Of a stretch of 25,713 nucleotides of DNA, positions 2,260-25,713 are shown piece after piece. The notes below the pieces were generated by a model that saw only the letters and a program-made list of their open reading frames with translations, had not been told where the DNA came from and did no database searches. Origin of the DNA: a virus. Lineage: Duplodnaviria; Heunggongvirae; Uroviricota; Caudoviricetes. The stretch is taken from IMG/VR virus record IMGVR_UViG_3300029877_000014. One strand, 5' to 3'. The position numbers were made by a program, and so were the translations under genes. The stretch's first letter is position 1, and each line of letters opens with the position of its first letter.

Positions 2260-2958
2260 TTACTGCGAAAGTTTGTTAATGGAAAGGAAGCCGCCAAAGT
2301 TGCCGACATTATTGCGGAACTTACAGCCACTCAGGCATTTGCTGCATTTATCCTTCGTGATTTCGGATGTCGGCTGGTCATATTCATCCGCGACCGCCGG
2401 ACCGTGATAACCGCACTCATCACCGCGATAGGTCCAGGTGCAGGTATTAGCAAGCATGATGCGCCCCGGAAAAACAGCGCCGTCCGTTTCCGTCGGCGTG
2501 GACAGTACAAAGGAGGCACTGACCGCGCTCAGTTCGCTGCACTGCTCAATACGCCAGCGGCTGATCACCTCCTGCTCCGGATCGGCGTCACTGTTTCCGT
2601 TGACGAAGTTCACCGCATCCAGAAAACGGGCGTAAACCTTACGCCTGACCACCGTTCCGCCGACCAGACTCTGCAGGTCTTCCGCCATCCCGGTGACCAT
2701 GCCGTGCAGATTAGAGACTTTCAGCGTTGGCCTTGCACTGGCACCTTTGCCGTTCATCTCAAATCCACTCCCCTGAATGGGATAGGCCTGATACTGCCGA
2801 CTCTGCCAGGTGACAGACTCTCCTTTCTCGTTCTGCTCATTGCAGAAAAAGTAGCGATCCCCGCCTACCTCGGTCAGGTCGATTTCCCAGAGCACCACGC
2901 TGGCCGACTGCTCCGCACGAATGCATTCATTCAGCGTTTCCTGTTGTATGTCCTGCAT
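2260..2958 (-). CDS. L: Minor tail protein L
   Basis: 232-aa ORF, the same length as lambda gpL and in the same position; ATGA start/stop overlap with M at 2958. Confidence 0.8.
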   Translation of the reverse strand: MQDIQQETLNECIRAEQSASVVLWEIDLTEVGGDRYFFCNEQNEKGESVTWQSRQYQAYPIQGSGFEMNGKGASARPTLKVSNLHGMVTGMAEDLQSLVGGTVVRRKVYARFLDAVNFVNGNSDADPEQEVISRWRIEQCSELSAVSASFVLSTPTETDGAVFPGRIMLANTCTWTYRGDECGYHGPAVADEYDQPTSEITKDKCSKCLSGCKFRNNVGNFGGFLSINKLSQ

Positions 2959-3254
2959 CAGATCACCACTTCGTCAAACTGACACGAAAAATCGGTATAG
3001 GTGATATGTTCTGTCGCTGACCACGTTCGACACACCACTCTGATTTTTCTGTTAATACCAGGCGGGCGCCAAAAAAAAGATTTATAGCCTTCATGCCGGG
3101 CTAAAAATTTTTCAAATGAATCACGTTCATTCGCCTCAACTTTGAAATCACAGGTGAAAACGCGCAGAGAATGATTAAGTCCATTTGGACTTCGTTGCTC
3201 ATAACCATCGCCAAATCTTACAGTTTTTATCGATGGTTTATTTTCTGTTTTCAT
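2958..3254 (-). CDS. M: Minor tail protein M
   Basis: The ORF track starts at 3296, which is a GTG overlapping the tape-measure stop. The first ATG is at 3254 (MKTENKPSIKTVRFGDGYEQR...), preceded by GAGGATGGA, and resembles the lambda gpM N-terminus. Confidence 0.7.
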   Translation of the reverse strand: MKTENKPSIKTVRFGDGYEQRSPNGLNHSLRVFTCDFKVEANERDSFEKFLARHEGYKSFFWRPPGINRKIRVVCRTWSATEHITYTDFSCQFDEVVI

Positions 3255-3288
3255 TCCATCCTCTGGTAACCAGTGAAATTCTTCCGTA

Positions 3289-6200
3289 TTAGCCACTTAA
3301 CATTCCCCCATCACGTCGCATATTTAACAGATTGCCCTGCACCCGCTGATCAACCATCCCCATAAGTGCTTTTATTGCCTGAGGGCCAATCTCTCCATTC
3401 TGGCCGTCATTTTGAATAGTGATTTGGTATACAGGGGCATAGGTAATATCTCCGCCTCCATTACCACTTTTACTATTAATAGCTCTGACACCAAGAGAAC
3501 CATCGGATGTTCGTGTTAATGGCATAATGGCTTCCGGACCAGCCTCACCAAAAACACCAGCCCCTTTTGCAAAAGCAAAAAATTGCGGGGAATCATAAAT
3601 ACCGTTCGAATACGTGTTCAATGACGGAGACTCATAAACACCGCCCTTTGCATTCGGAATAAATTTACTAATAGCACTCCCGATAGTTCCTAAAATCCCC
3701 CCCGAAGAACTGTTACTAATGCTGTCGAAAATCCCAGTAATTGAAGCCTTTAATGCTATTCGACTAAGATCCGAAATCACGGAAGTAGCGAAAGAACGAA
3801 AATTTGCCTTGCCTGTCGTGACAAAATCACCCAGCGCATCGGTCATTCCATCAAACATCTGAGTCGTGGTTGATTTTATCTGCTCACTGATATCCTTAGT
3901 GTCATCCAGCCAGTTATTGAATCCCTGGGAGGCACCACTAACCCAGTCTCCTGCCTGAATATCGAGCTGCTCGTTTTTCTGTCTGACAATTTCTTTTTCT
4001 CGTTCCAGAGCATCATTCAGAGCCTGCATTTTCTCCTGAAAAACATGATTTGACATCCCACGGGATTTATCTGCATAGTCACGTTCAAGTTGCAGACGCT
4101 GATTGTTATATTCACGTTCAATCCGCAGTAATTCCTGCTGGCGTTGCTGATTTTTATCGCCAACCCCATAACCAGCAATCTGAATATCATACCCCTGTTG
4201 ACGATTATCAATCGAAGCCTGCAATAAATCACGCCATGCAGCTATTTCGGCGGATTCCTTGATTAGCCTGTTATTTTTTTCAATCGCAACATTTTTCTCC
4301 ATCAACGCGGTTATTTCTTCCCGGTGTAAGAGAAGCGATTTCTGATCCTGGGTTAATTTCGATGACGGTCGTGACTCCAGGTCGGCAATCTGCTGACGCC
4401 ACTTAACCAGTTCCTGTTCAGAGGAACTTAATTTAACGGTTAATTCAGTTTGTGAACTTAGTAACGCATTCTGTTGATTCAGATGATCAATCATTCGTTG
4501 GGCAGCATCATCCGAATAACCTTTCGCCTTTGGTTGCTTTGGATCTTTATAACGCTCATTTATTTGAGCGATAAAATTATTATATTCTTCCTTTGAATAC
4601 TGACTCTTTAGCTTTTCCAGTTTTGCAAGTTCACTAGCTCTCTGCTGCTCCCGGGTCTGATATTGTTTTGAAAAGGCATCTGCTCTCTGTCTGAGTTCAA
4701 TTCCTTCCTGTTGTCGCTTGTTGTAATCGTTTATTGATGAATTTAGGACGTCCTGAGCAATTTTTTCTGCTTGAAGTACGCCCAATTGCTGCTTTAATCG
4801 TGCCAGCCTTTTATTTTGAGCTCCGCCATCTCCAATGCCACCTAACCCGAAAACTCCGGGTCGGGTATTTTTTTCTATTTCATCAATTTGACGGAGAACA
4901 TCTGAGATTTTTTGATCAAGGGAGGCCTCACGGCCAATGTCCAGCATGGAATCCCATGCCCATTTTGCGGAGTCTGCGACAGCTTTCCATGCAGTCTCAA
5001 GATAACCAAGATTTTCTTTAATCTGGTTGGTGCGCTGGATCATTGAGGATGAGTATGCTTCTGTCGCAATGCGGGCGGCCTCCTGCTGGTTCCCTTCATC
5101 CTGTAGCGCCTTAATCTGGTTATAAGTCGCAATTGTCAGAAAATGGTACTGATCATTAAGTTTTGATATGGCACTGACAGGATCCTTTGCAATTTCATTG
5201 AAGTCATTAACCAGTTGTTCGGTTGATATTCCTGTTACTTCGCTCGTTTTTACTATCGCTGTCGTCACTTGCTCCAGCGAACTGCTCGCTACCTTTCCCG
5301 AACGCACAAGCTGGTTTAATACTGCCGCCGCAGCGCCAGTTGTCGAATCAGCCGCATTCCCGGCACGTTGAGCTATATCGGCCAATTGCCCGCTGGTTGT
5401 CCCCAACTGATTTCCGGTAAGAATAAGAGATTTATTAAATTCGTCCTGCTCCTGAGAGCCTTTATAGTAAGCCAGCCCTAAGACGCCAACGGCTGCTGCG
5501 GCCAGGGTAAAAGGATTAATTAATCCCAGCACATAAGAACCAACACCTTTGATCGCCGGGCCAATCCCACCGAACATATCTTTTAGCTGGCCGCCCTGCT
5601 GCATTAACACCATAAAAGGCGACTGACCAGTGGACAACCCAACAACAATATCCGTCATTTGTGCAGGCAACATGCGCATAGCAAAAGCCGTTTGTTTTGC
5701 CGACATTCCGGTTTTGCTTAATTGAGATTGAGTAACCTCAAGCTCACTCCGCATAGCACGAAGTTTTCCAGAAAGTTCCTCATACATTTCAGGAGAGAGC
5801 ATCCCCTTAGCTTTTGCTTCATTGAGCTGTTTCTGTTGTTCTACCAGACGATTAAAAGCAGTTCCGACAGGGTCAAGTTGAGCAATCAGACGTTGCAAAG
5901 CAGCAACCTGTTCATCATGCGCTTTTGCTGCTTCTCGCTCTGCCTGAGCCTCTCCGGTAAGCTCTCGCCGTGTTTCCTGTATTTTTCGGCTATAATTCTC
6001 AAACTGAGAACCATTTATTTTCCCGGATGCAAACGCAGCATTAAGTTCATCCTGCTGTTGTTCAAGATTTCTTAGCGCCGCAGCCAGAGGGTCGATCTTG
6101 TCCAGCATTCTTTGAAAGGCCTGAGCCTGCGCTTCCTGCTGGGCGGCAGCAAGTTTTCCGGCCTTCTCGGCTTCTCTCTGCGCTTGCGCAACCCCGCTCA

Positions 6201-22065: not shown

Positions 22066-22336
22066 AACCCCCACCTCGCAGATGCGGGCGCTGTGTAATG
22101 GAAACAAAAAATGGCCACCAGCGGCCCGTAAAAAACACCCCGTCAAAAGCACCGGCATCCGCAGATGCCCTTTGCGTGGCGTTATTTGATGCGCGCCAGA
22201 TGTGGCGCAAAGAAATGAAATAAGACTTATCGAAAATTAAGGTCAATTTGATGATTTAAACCACTTCTGAAGCTTAGTAGTATGAACATGTCCCCAGAAG
22301 GGGGCCAATACTTATTATTCTTCATGGACTTTGTCC

Positions 22337-22369
22337 CGCGGTCTTAATCCGACGACCGCGCTACTTTTT
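22337..22369 (+). terminator. Plus-strand hairpin CGCGGUC...GACCGCG followed by CUAC-UUUUU (weaker terminator-like unit R1)
   Basis: Preceded by the mini-palindrome GGACTTTGTCCC; read from sequence. The T-run is 4 nt away from the stem. Confidence 0.3.
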
Positions 22370-22406
22370 CACCCTCTCGCAAATTGCTATCTAAAGGACT
22401 TTGTCC

Positions 22407-22439
22407 CACGAGTATTCCAGGATGCTCGTGTCTTTTTTT
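22407..22439 (+). terminator. Plus-strand intrinsic terminator R2 (CACGAG...CUCGUG followed by U-CUUUUUUU)
   Basis: 6-bp GC-containing stem extendable by A-T/wobble pairs, followed by a run of seven T; also preceded by GGACTTTGTCCC. Confidence 0.5.
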
Positions 22440-22455
22440 GTCCTGAGGAAGGAAT

Positions 22456-22479
22456 AAAAAAAACCGCCAAATATGGCGG
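22456..22479 (-). terminator. Minus-strand intrinsic terminator (CCGCCA-UAUU-UGGCGG followed by UUUUUUUU) downstream of the tRNA genes
   Basis: Perfect 6-bp stem with 4-nt loop and eight T on the minus strand; lies back to back with plus-strand terminator R2. Confidence 0.55.
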
Positions 22480-22839
22480 TTGGTCACTGCATGAGATAAA
22501 TCATTTTATTGTAATAAGAATCGAGGTGTCGGGTGCCTCCCGAAATATCCATCTCTACAACAGATATTGTGATTCCCCGCCAAACCACTATCTAAACCAC
22601 CCTCGCACTGAGGAACACCTCTGCGGTGCTTTTACAACACCAGAATGATGCATCACCGACCCTGCCAGGAAATACAAAATCTCCACCGATAATGCACCAT
22701 TCTGCTGCCGTAAAAAAATTAGCACTGTGACTACAACCGACCTCCAATCATAGTCAGAGAACGGATTGTCTTTTTAAAACAACCCACCCCACGTAATAAA
22801 AAATACGCCAGTGCCACGATACAATAAGGCTTGTTTCTC

Positions 22840-22914
<75 letters not shown>

Positions 22915-22917
22915 ATA

Positions 22918-22993
<76 letters not shown>

Positions 22994-23230: not shown

Positions 23231-23260
23231 AGAAACAACAAAACCCGCTCGATGGCGGGT
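23231..23260 (-). terminator. Terminator-like hairpin (ACCCGCC-AUCGA-GCGGGUU followed by UUGUUGUUUCU) about 90 nt downstream of the Q stop; candidate tR'
   Basis: GC-rich stem and T-rich tail on the minus strand; position is consistent with the end of a short PR'-initiated transcript. Confidence 0.4.
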
Positions 23261-23346
23261 TCTATTAAAGTTTAATTGCGCTTGATTCGCCTCGCGATAC
23301 AGCTTTGCGAAGCGTAGCAAAATTGAAGCAGTTTATGCGTAAAAAA

Positions 23347-23889: not shown

Positions 23890-24176
23890 AAATAACCTTC
23901 CTTTCTCCAGATTTCTTGCGTGCGAAAAACACCTTCTGCATGCATCAGGCGTAAATCTTCTTTGGTGTAATCGCTTGTTTTTACCCGCCCGTCGATTAAA
24001 TCGTGGCATGAGCTACAGGCAATCGCCGCCTGCATATCGTGTGGTTTTGTCGCTGTTCCGCACGTTCCCGCCAGTCGGTAATGCGCCAGCACAGACGTTT
24101 CCGGATCGTGATTGCAGTAGCCAAGAATTCTGACGGTGCACATCCGCCCCCGCGCCGCTTTACGTAAATCCACCAT
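23886..24176 (-). CDS. NinG/YbcO-like zinc-binding protein (DUF1364-type)
   Basis: 96-aa ORF with two Cys pairs (CTVRILGYCNHDPE ... CSSCHDLIDGR), resembling DLP12 YbcO as I recall it; translationally coupled on both sides. Confidence 0.55.
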   Translation of the reverse strand: MVDLRKAARGRMCTVRILGYCNHDPETSVLAHYRLAGTCGTATKPHDMQAAIACSSCHDLIDGRVKTSDYTKEDLRLMHAEGVFRTQEIWRKEGYL

Positions 24177-24775
24177 TACGCAAACTCCAGCAGCTGCGCG
24201 GCCACATTTTCGACTTGTTCCGGAGAGGAAAATTTACGGAACAGAATCCAGTTCCACAGCACATTCAGAACAGATTTATAAACCTGCTGAAACTCGGTTT
24301 CGTCCATATTCGCAAAAGCGATAGATTTTGCCCGACGCCCGCGGCTACCGTCCGGATAAAAATGTTCGGTGTAAAATCCAGCCTGAATGGTTACCCACTC
24401 GCGAAAAGCCTCAAACGACTTTAGCAATGCCGTATCCCGGGTTCTGCGTGTCGCAACTGTATTCAGATATTGCTCTGCGGCATCACTCAGGGCTGGCGTG
24501 TGTTCCCGACCAACTGATTCGCACAGGTAATCAACGAAACCAGACAGCAGTTCTCGTTCGCGAGGCGTGATCGCCCCACCGACCGGAGTCCAGTAATCGA
24601 ATCCCAGTTGCAGGAGTTTGAAAAAACGCTTGTGGAATGCGTAGTTACGCACACGCTTAAAGTCTGCGTGTATCCACTCGCCTATTTTGATTTGATGCAG
24701 AAAATCACAACTCTCCGGCGTCGCCGGGAGAAGTAATCCGGAAGAGGTTTGTTTGACCAGTTGTATATGCGCCAT
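24176..24775 (-). CDS. Nin-region protein (DUF1367-like)
   Basis: 199-aa ORF directly upstream of the YbcO-like gene. Family assignment is from memory of nin-region proteins and is uncertain. Confidence 0.45.
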   Translation of the reverse strand: MAHIQLVKQTSSGLLLPATPESCDFLHQIKIGEWIHADFKRVRNYAFHKRFFKLLQLGFDYWTPVGGAITPRERELLSGFVDYLCESVGREHTPALSDAAEQYLNTVATRRTRDTALLKSFEAFREWVTIQAGFYTEHFYPDGSRGRRAKSIAFANMDETEFQQVYKSVLNVLWNWILFRKFSSPEQVENVAAQLLEFA

Positions 24776-25047
24776 TTCTTAATCTCTCGATGGCGCAGCG
24801 CAGCAGATGCCAGTTGTTCAGGCTGACGTATGAAGTATAAATAAACTGGCTCCAGTGTAAAGCCCCACCTTAATGGAATAAAAACCAAAAAACAGATTGC
24901 TGGGATACAAACAACGCTTATTATTAAAAGCGGTTAAACAAATTAAATTTTAATGTTATGCAAATCTGCCAGATCACCATAATATCTCATTTGAAAACCG
25001 CTGAAATAACAACCCTATCAGGGTTAATCATATTAAGGTGAGTAAAT

Positions 25048-25134
25048 ATGGAAAACAACAAATCTGCACATTACGTTCCTTTTTTATCTATAATACTTTT
25101 TGTATTTTGTTGTGTATGGGCGGTATTTTTATAA
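25048..25134 (+). CDS. Small hydrophobic peptide, 28 aa (MENNKSAHYVPFLSIILFVFCCVWAVFL), on the opposite strand to all neighbours
   Basis: ATG at 25048 preceded by AAGGTGAG at 7-nt spacing; single predicted TM helix; stop TAA at 25132-25134 followed immediately by a perfect hairpin. Below the track's length cutoff. Confidence 0.4.
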   Translation: MENNKSAHYVPFLSIILFVFCCVWAVFL

Positions 25135-25150
25135 AACACACCCACAAATA

Positions 25151-25178
25151 AATCAAACCCGCTACAGCGGGTTTGATT
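25151..25178. terminator. Bidirectional terminator-like perfect palindrome (12-bp stem AATCAAACCCGC / GCGGGTTTGATT, loop TACA) between convergent genes
   Basis: Read from sequence; flanked by T/A-rich sequence on both strands. Lies between the peptide stop (25134) and the 102-aa gene stop (25189). Confidence 0.5.
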
Positions 25179-25188
25179 TATATAGTTG

Positions 25189-25497
25189 TTATACGGAAAC
25201 TGGCACACGAGCAGGCAATGGATAGTGAGCCCAGTTATTAGCATTTAAAGCTCTTACGCCATCAGCATAAACTTGTGTGTTTCCATCTAATGATTTTAAA
25301 GTTACTACAATAGTTACAGGTAAAGGCTCCATTAAGGCCGGTTCATTCGCTCTCAACGTTGTTTTAGCCTGAAGAGCCCAGTTACCCGAAGTAATTCCTT
25401 TATTAAATGCCTTGCGATGAATTTTTACTGGTGACCACTTTCCACCATGCTCAATTTGAGCTCTCTCATATCCAGATTGACCGTTTTCTCCTTCCAT
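25189..25497 (-). CDS. Hypothetical protein, about 102 aa, AT-rich gene
   Basis: ATG at 25497 with RBS AAGGAAAAG (the track's start at 25503 is GTG). The same frame stays open upstream to a TGA at 25660-25662 without any ATG/GTG/TTG, so the real start is uncertain. No recognisable motifs. Confidence 0.4.
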   Translation of the reverse strand: MEGENGQSGYERAQIEHGGKWSPVKIHRKAFNKGITSGNWALQAKTTLRANEPALMEPLPVTIVVTLKSLDGNTQVYADGVRALNANNWAHYPLPARVPVSV

Positions 25498-25713
25498 AGG
25501 CACTTTTCCTTTTATAGTATTATTCTCAATTAAGCCAAAACTTAGCTCTACGTTCGCGCGAACATATTCACTGCCGGCATTAGGGTTCAGTGGTGGTGCA
25601 TATGCAGCAGTAATGGCTTTGTTGAATAAATCGAACTTTTGCTGAGTTGAAGGATCAGATCACGCATCCTCCCGACAACACAGACCATTCCGTGGCAAAG
25701 CAAAAGTTCAGAA

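Follow-up and report, generated by a model that had tools for sequence, protein, structure and literature searches.

What, if anything, is encoded in the AT-rich gap between the early-right genes of a lambdoid prophage and the defence genes that adjoin them? We addressed this question in a 25,713-nt stretch of DNA from a lambdoid prophage of Escherichia coli (IMG/VR record IMGVR_UViG_3300029877_000014; the whole stretch is called the window hereafter), where a 413-bp intergenic stretch (positions 24,776 to 25,188) lies between a DUF1367 gene and the 3' end of the gene that encodes the S8 peptidase of an IetAS anti-phage system. A first-pass annotation, made from the letters alone, had placed in this gap a small open reading frame (ORF), opposed to the phage genes and preceded by a strong ribosome-binding site, whose hydrophobic product would form one membrane helix. 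We recovered the ORF and the peptide, MENNKSAHYVPFLSIILFVFCCVWAVFL, exactly as they had been given, as well as the ribosome-binding site (coordinates of all features are in Table 1), and the comparisons described below make it very probable that this 87-nt ORF is a real protein-coding gene.

The signals for translation are clear in the window and well kept elsewhere. The Shine-Dalgarno sequence is strong and stands at an optimal distance from the ATG. It reads AAGGTG(A/G) in most haplotypes and is weakened to AAAGTGAG in the clade of strain CFT073. Predicted folds leave it without strong sequestration, and the fold of the single sequence keeps most of it open. This Shine-Dalgarno sequence and the conservation of the frame lead us to infer that the ORF is translated. 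The peptide has 28 residues, of which the first nine are polar and residues 10 to 28 are hydrophobic up to the C-terminus. The mean Kyte-Doolittle hydropathy of the latter segment is +2.7 (range +2.3 to +2.7), in line with the one-helix peptide of the first-pass annotation. The product would thus be a single-pass inner-membrane peptide with a hydrophobic helix of 19 residues that ends the protein.

The size of such an ORF is by itself unremarkable, since the same 400 bp contains several ORFs of 20 to 68 amino acids, and phenylalanine, leucine and isoleucine are naturally encoded by AT-rich DNA. It could be a chance frame, or what remains of the 5' part of a longer gene after the insertion of cargo, conserved by recent kinship: all copies lie within one genus, and the probability that 49 random substitution events introduce no stop codon is 0.12. 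The ORF rises above this expectation because it is conserved across homologues in the manner of a coding sequence. We gathered additional copies with an anchor, AAATTAMATTTTAATGTTATG at 24940-24960, a conserved block that was chosen outside the ORF because this avoids circularity; it yielded 120 IMG/VR loci and copies in Shigella flexneri and Escherichia ruysiae. The resulting set of 127 copies comprises those located either by this promoter-block anchor or by DNA similarity over the whole region. Anchor matches that lacked the ORF were all unrelated AT-rich matches in other phyla or were cut by a contig end.

The first-pass annotation had named loss of the reading frame in related elements as the outcome that would speak against a gene. 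The 28-codon frame is intact in 127/127 true homologues, with identical start and stop, across 18 nucleotide haplotypes and 14 peptide variants. No insertion or deletion occurs in the ORF among these copies; the 5' untranslated region (UTR) carries several. The minimum-spanning network of haplotypes implies 49 substitution events, 24 synonymous and 25 non-synonymous. The synonymous share (24/49) exceeds the expectation of 28%, obtained by simulating mutations with the observed mix of transitions and transversions (binomial p=0.0015), and the events are biased towards third codon positions (7, 16 and 26 events at positions 1, 2 and 3, p=0.004). Between clades, the ratio of non-synonymous to synonymous substitution rates (dN/dS, Nei-Gojobori) ranges from 0.06 to 0.45. 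The copy that diverges most, on an IMG/VR contig that we call L121 (ORF at 779-865), differs from that of the window by 10 synonymous and 5 non-synonymous changes, i.e., a dN/dS of 0.06. At the protein level, 16/28 positions are invariant (pattern MENN...H..P.LS.ILF..C..WA.FL), and the non-synonymous changes are almost exclusively exchanges among hydrophobic residues. These comparisons show that the frame, the start codon, the Shine-Dalgarno sequence and the peptide sequence are under purifying selection.

These results leave very little room for a chance frame, against which stand the significant excess of synonymous changes, the third-position bias and the low ratio in L121. Nor is the ORF a variable truncation, because all ten downstream junction classes described below share the stop codon inside the conserved block; no longer homologue was found by tblastn or by a scan with degenerate codons. 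We put the probability of an accidental or leftover frame very low indeed. Other readings of the same letters were tried and rejected. An overlapping frame of 37 residues starting with GTG (25038-25151) is not conserved and has an early stop in the clade of locus L008, and an antisense frame of 57 residues (25071-25244) is not conserved either. A would-be lipobox, L-F-A-G-C, is present in one clade only and would leave a mature peptide of 7-8 residues.

How common is this gene, and why is it absent from annotations? The 413-bp region is present in 1176/5426 complete E. coli genomes (about 22%), at 1246 places in all and with 60-100% identity, and the cassette usually occurs in a single copy per genome. 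None of the records listed among the matches to the region has an annotation under the ORF, and none of the six main peptide variants has an exact match in a collection of ~15 billion proteins. Searches of the peptide against the models of Pfam, NCBIfam and PHROG gave no match above noise, be it to the Hok/Gef, Ldr, Ibs, ShoB, TisB, DinQ or Zor families or to any other, which agrees with the earlier statement that the peptide, although like type I toxins in size and hydrophobicity, matches none of those recognised. The sub-threshold matches were to the Lp6.6 lipoprotein (14 bits, cutoff 35), to Sec20 (12.7 bits, cutoff 27) and to an Rz-like spanin of PHROG (E=0.009), all of them reflecting generic hydrophobic segments. 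Rfam has no small RNA family in the region, where matches were sub-threshold and driven by the terminator (NrrF, 25 bits vs 60; Leu leader). Full-text literature searches for the peptide string returned nothing relevant, as did those for IteA/IteS, and searches on the hotspot in which the ORF lies returned general papers only. The gene was overlooked because 87 nt falls under the minimum length of common gene finders.

The family appears confined to lambdoid prophages of Escherichia and Shigella, as far as our searches see. A tblastn search of phage and plasmid records retrieved Escherichia copies only (four records of induced E. coli prophages and two mislabelled E. coli chromosomes). The degenerate-codon scan, in which a proline codon other than CCT was required, produced six chance matches and no distant homologue. 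Scanning genome contigs with the promoter anchor added only the S. flexneri and E. ruysiae copies, plus AT-rich chance matches in unrelated phyla. The peptide represents a new, unannotated family of small proteins of a familiar kind, i.e., a prophage hydrophobic micropeptide, a moron or a candidate type I toxin. That about 22% of complete E. coli genomes hold a gene under selection that is missing from the annotation, the family libraries and the protein collections we searched exemplifies the blind spot for small proteins.

The genetic organisation around the ORF reveals a second kind of conservation, that of a position. The G+C content is 0.31-0.37 across 24800-25250 and 0.47-0.59 in the flanking genes, so the AT-richness that had been reported is real. 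Comparison between loci delimits a minimal conserved unit of ~24915-25135 and a usual unit of ~24800-25155, i.e., an AT-rich cassette of about 220-350 bp. The cassette is opposed to the early-right operon of the prophage and lies between genes of the nin/Q type and a variable slot for cargo. Homology between loci stops directly after the stop codon of the small ORF, and 10 classes of downstream junctions occur around the same module: among the 120 loci, 68 are of the hokD type, 15 carry IetAS, 13 and 9 belong to two DUF1971 types, and the rest are of other types. Upstream there are three classes: DUF1367 is the neighbour in 79 loci, 38 have the CFT073 arrangement of a hypothetical gene followed by DUF968, and a single locus is odd. 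In L121, the module adjoins a gene for a 992-residue tail-fibre-like protein instead of nin/Q genes.

A case of exchange comes from CFT073 and the Qin prophage of K-12, which are collinear on both sides of the slot: a 354-bp module in the former stands in the place of an unrelated 430-bp segment with rem in the latter. On the evidence of these alignments, the module is a discrete, exchangeable cassette that is allelic to rem of K-12 and behaves like a moron. It is present or absent between collinear phages and deviates in base composition. The first-pass annotation had reached the moron reading from the reverse orientation, the base composition and the gene's own signals; the AT-rich exchangeable cassette and its orientation stand, whereas the terminator counted as the gene's own is missing from most contexts. 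A promoter is suggested by the conservation pattern, in which TAnnAT keeps a fixed spacing from a conserved block.

The cargo that begins past the stop codon of the ORF (seen in loci L001/L004-L009/L014/L024/L078) is rich in defence and toxin-antitoxin (TA) genes. It includes IetAS (PADLOC matches with E=8e-301 for IetS and E=9e-143 for IetA), a pair of AbiL-like ATPases, an ATPase listed as a PADLOC candidate, and NACHT and tetratricopeptide repeat (TPR) proteins. The same slot also holds hokD-relBE, DUF1971 genes with a transporter of the major facilitator superfamily (MFS), insertion sequence (IS) elements and other PADLOC candidates. Because such varied cargo adjoins one and the same ORF, the latter marks the conserved border of a hotspot for defence and TA cargo in lambdoid prophages. 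Its fixed place beside the slot of IetAS, AbiL-like, NACHT or hokD-relBE genes makes it a practical landmark for mining the defence systems of these prophages.

If the ORF is translated, which elements drive its transcription? Among the non-coding features that precede the ORF, an inverted repeat, ATGTTATG-N17-CATAATAT, is the best conserved. Every clade, L121 included, has retained its arms and the distance between them; the sequence of the 17-nt spacer diverges freely. Its right arm contains a -10 sequence that stays TAnnAT across clades (TAATAT, TAACAT, TAGCAT). This pattern suggests that the repeat holds the promoter of the ORF, of a weak sigma-70 type, with a transcription start site near 24992. 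It could also be the operator of a regulator, instead of or besides carrying the -35 and -10 sequences.

A second palindrome, in the 5' UTR, had been proposed as an operator or a 5' UTR hairpin. The sequence is there, one position to the right of the coordinates first given, and is conserved in one clade only. A single pair covaries in the major clade (8 sequences have UA and 6 have CG), and 79% of its cells are paired vs 74% in shuffles (3/500). It would be at most a lineage-specific stabiliser, because it is broken in three clades outside the major one (CFT073, L008/L009 and L121). Downstream, the terminator that had been described as the gene's own, with a perfect stem of 12 bp, does exist and its stem is in fact 15 bp. 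We assign it to the junction with the IetAS cargo, because a canonical plus-strand terminator after the ORF is present only in that class (15/120 loci); in the other classes either the terminator of hokD follows, with its U-tract on the other strand, or nothing obvious is seen. The same terminator dominates the z-score of the mRNA fold (-4.2). The consensus fold of the 5' UTR and start region has only -2.6 kcal/mol and no support from covariation. A long-range pairing of the 5' and 3' ends in the single-sequence fold was rejected, since its 3' partner GCG GTA is GCA TTA in most clades and this change is uncompensated.

The conservation of the promoter block and inverted repeat, the most conserved non-coding parts of the module, could mean that transcription itself is the function. 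An outward promoter might then serve as an insulating or interfering element that limits read-through from the cargo slot into the nin/Q operon or the reverse, or provide an antisense RNA to convergent cargo such as the 3' end of hokD, the ORF being incidental or serving to keep ribosomes on the RNA. Most junction classes lack a plus-strand terminator, so that transcripts would enter the cargo in antisense (that of 68/120 loci being of the hokD type), and a divergent promoter-like site is directed at DUF1367. We nevertheless regard this explanation as improbable: it does not account for purifying selection on the amino-acid sequence (the synonymous excess and the dN/dS values given above) or for the invariant start codon, Shine-Dalgarno sequence and exact length, and the would-be antisense target, i.e., the cargo, is wholly different between loci.

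What, then, does the peptide do? Our preferred reading, held tentatively and with somewhat less than even confidence, is that it is a membrane peptide expressed in the lysogen as part of a module resembling type I toxin-antitoxin systems, restrained by antisense transcription and aiding the retention of the prophage segment that bears the cargo. The gene would be transcribed in the lysogen from the weak sigma-70-type promoter within the inverted repeat, and its mRNA efficiently translated. The peptide would insert in the inner membrane and do harm if made in excess. Convergent antisense transcription would limit its synthesis, starting from the minus-strand promoter-like site (25054 to 25027) and crossing the 5' UTR and then the promoter as far as a hairpin that lies at the edge of the minimal module (24932 to 24915). 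The putative antisense RNA would start near 25020, measure ~110 nt and overlap ~29 nt of the 5' UTR. On induction, the early-right transcript of the phage would also oppose the synthesis of the peptide. In this way the module may help to keep the prophage segment with its defence cargo.

Several observations are consistent with this scheme. The peptide is small (28 residues, under the 60 typical of the type I class) and as hydrophobic as the hydropathy values above indicate. The antisense promoter-like site overlaps the first codons and the 5' UTR of the ORF, and every clade has A2 and T6 in its -10 (TATGAT, CATAAT, AATAAT, TATTCT). The hairpin has 98.8% of its cells paired on the minus strand, with two pairs showing double changes, and its G.U intermediates favour the minus strand 7:1. 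In L121, homology ends at the hairpin; this locus retains the hairpin (with a compensatory change from G-C to A-U), the inverted repeat, the Shine-Dalgarno sequence and the ORF, and lacks the promoter block of the DUF1367 side. The cargo slot is enriched in TA and abortive-infection genes, with hokD adjoining in 68/120 loci. Finally, in E. coli F2_81 (L147, NZ_CP043542.1), an IS3-family element (2769-4075) lies within the Shine-Dalgarno sequence (AAGG^TGAG, with a 3-bp duplication) and splits the intact ORF from its promoter, next to an intact IetAS. Hok loci silenced by IS elements occur in K-12. Together, the antisense site and the hairpin suggest a compact toxin/antisense layout, although neither is statistically firm.

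A number of results weigh against the scheme. The promoter-like matches in the region are not above the expectation from shuffles (3 vs 2.0), and the -35 of the antisense site is fixed anyway by the Met-Glu-Asn codons. The covariation of the hairpin is not significant in the shuffle control (60-95/500); its stem has only 5 bp, L121 lacks the U-tail behind it, and L138 has a mismatch on the minus strand. The fold of the putative antisense RNA is no better than that of shuffles (z=-1.8). The promoter proposed for the ORF was not called by the consensus scan, because its -35 is poor. Most type I toxin mRNAs hide the Shine-Dalgarno sequence in a structure, whereas here the 5' UTR, of ~56 nt under the proposed start site, has no conserved structure of this sort, and nothing suggests a translationally inert toxin mRNA. 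The searches of Pfam, NCBIfam and PHROG revealed no similarity to known toxin families, the cassette is usually found once per genome, and the disruption in F2_81 is a single case. The stronger proposition, i.e., that the locus is the founding member of an Escherichia-specific type I TA family, with a tail-anchored toxin of 28 residues whose promoter faces an antisense promoter ~30 bp away, and that it acts as a fixed 'addiction' anchor at the border of the hotspot and stabilises the swapped-in defence cargo, is in our judgement unlikely.

Much of this evidence would equally suit a non-toxic small inner-membrane protein of the lysogen, a moron product that modulates a larger membrane protein or blocks superinfecting phages, with the antisense features arising by chance. 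We consider this nearly as likely as the toxin-like scheme. It shares with the toxin scheme the evidence for a coding sequence, for a cassette and for a membrane peptide; beyond that, a strong and open Shine-Dalgarno sequence on an unstructured mRNA suits constitutive synthesis, and the statistical weakness of the antisense elements is what one would expect. The 16 invariant residues, which include MENN...H in the polar head and P-x-LS, C and WA within the helix, suggest a specific partner over generic damage to the membrane, and the ORF is disrupted in 0/127 copies. Against it, no partner can be named, and there is no homology to known small regulators. Since every neighbour varies between loci, a partner would have to be encoded by the host or by a distant phage gene. 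A benign peptide also leaves unexplained the persistence of the minus-strand -10-like sequence and the fact that the minimal module ends at the hairpin. The antisense-restrained toxin-like peptide stays our preferred reading. The peptide is a candidate for a segment-stabilising or membrane-acting factor in lysogens. If it proved toxic, with an RNA antitoxin, it would represent a new type I family; if benign, a new phage-borne modulator of small size acting at the membrane.

The surroundings of the ORF in the window are those of a lambdoid E. coli prophage read on the minus strand. Leftward in order come the lysis genes, the genes of tRNA-Gly and tRNA-Thr, a DUF1133 Q-type antiterminator, DUF1364 and DUF1367 (24176-24775), followed by the AT-rich gap and the end of the S8 peptidase gene. 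The ORF had been called the only plausibly coding element on the plus strand, which does not hold, as RefSeq has a coding sequence for a 41-residue protein on that strand near the holin gene. The window is 100% identical to the intact IetAS locus of NZ_CP026723 only up to 25614. An element of the IS903 family interrupts ietS at 25614/25615, so that in this genome the IetAS system beside the small ORF would probably not be active.

Two further observations concern the operon on the other side of the gap. A strong promoter-like site close to the DUF1367 start diverges from the promoter proposed for the small ORF and would be aimed at DUF1367. The block containing it is kept in the contexts with DUF1367 and in those with the CFT073-type hypothetical gene and DUF968, and is not found in L121. 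A constitutive promoter feeding the operon of the Q antiterminator would be surprising in a lysogen. Farther to the left, a sub-threshold Rfam match to STnc370 on the minus strand (23232-23298; 27.9 bits vs a gathering score of 54) probably reflects just the hairpin of the terminator that follows the Q-type gene.

Table 1. Position and basis of the features discussed in the text. Coordinates refer to the window unless a locus is named.
Feature	Coordinates	Strand	Basis or remark
Small ORF	25048-25134	+	ATG to TAA; encodes MENNKSAHYVPFLSIILFVFCCVWAVFL
Shine-Dalgarno sequence AGGTGA	25036-25041	+	6 nt before the ATG; direct reading of the sequence
Inverted repeat ATGTTATG-N17-CATAATAT	24953-24985	+	8-bp arms at 24953-60 and 24978-85
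Candidate ORF promoter	-35-like TATGCA 24957-62; -10 TAATAT 24980-85	+	Inside the inverted repeat
Palindrome AACCCT-ATC-AGGGTT	25011-25025	+	Within the 5' UTR
Terminator	25148-25181		Perfect 15-bp stem, 4-nt loop; between the ORF and convergent ietS
Antisense promoter-like site TTTCCA-16-TATGAT	25027-25054	-	Scan, 9/12 matches; hypothetical
Hairpin CGCTT-N8-AAGCG	24915-24932	-	Edge of the minimal module; U-rich tail in most copies
Promoter-like site TTTACA-16-TATACT	24834-24861	-	Scan, 10/12 matches; ~60 nt upstream of the DUF1367 start
3' end of ietS/iteS (IetAS S8 peptidase gene)	25189-25614	-	RefSeq annotation of the identical locus; truncated here
End of IS903-family (IS5 family) element	25615-25713		Matches transposase regions of the IS5/IS903 family in thousands of plasmids at 100% identity
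41-aa hypothetical protein WP_001298832.1	22098-22223	+	RefSeq; just beyond the holin gene
105-aa ORF	22331-22648	+	GenBank ON470595 annotation
tRNA-Gly(TCC) and tRNA-Thr(TGT)	22840-22993	-	Between the Q-type antiterminator and the lysis cassette
Alternative cassettes in one slot	rem in L010 (K-12 MG1655 Qin) 4603-5032; small-ORF module in L007 (CFT073) 2503-2856		

How does the locus compare with known systems? With the short type I toxins (Ibs/Sib, ShoB/OhsC, TisB/IstR-1, DinQ/AgrB, ZorO/OrzO, Hok/Sok) it shares a product of fewer than 30 residues that is nearly all one hydrophobic helix, a history of being missed by annotation, and a place near TA genes on a mobile element, in an intergenic cassette that is rich in A+T. 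The promoter-like site on the opposite strand would give an RNA overlapping the 5' UTR, as do the divergent or overlapping antitoxin RNAs of these systems. ShoB ends in ...LFL, and so does the peptide. In contrast with these toxins, it has no sequence similarity to them, its 5' UTR is neither long nor structured and leaves the Shine-Dalgarno sequence exposed, there is usually one copy per genome, and the antisense RNA is a predicted one.

The small membrane proteins MgtR (30 aa), MgtS (31 aa), PmrR (29 aa), AcrZ (49 aa) and KdpF (29 aa) are of similar size and have the same arrangement of a polar N-terminus followed by a C-terminal helix. They also resemble the peptide in having conserved residues within the helix, a strong Shine-Dalgarno sequence and no obvious block to translation. 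MgtR, MgtS, AcrZ, PmrR and MgrB bind and modulate a larger membrane protein. The genes of the five proteins first named are in an operon or co-regulated with their target, whereas all the neighbours of the small ORF are variable, and there is no homology between them and the peptide.

As a genetic unit, the cassette resembles phage morons (for example bor and lom of lambda, gp15 of HK97). It too is autonomous and rich in A+T, carries promoter-like signals of its own, and lies between conserved phage genes in an orientation opposed to, or independent of, that of the phage operon; of otherwise collinear prophages, some have it and others lack it. It differs in being far smaller and in that the terminator is outside the unit in most contexts. 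The rem gene of the K-12 Qin prophage (b1561) occupies the same slot, between a nin-like gene (ydfU/DUF968) and the 3' end of hokD, and it encodes, on the opposite strand, an 83-residue protein of soluble appearance and unrelated sequence. The two are alternative cassettes of one slot, not homologues.

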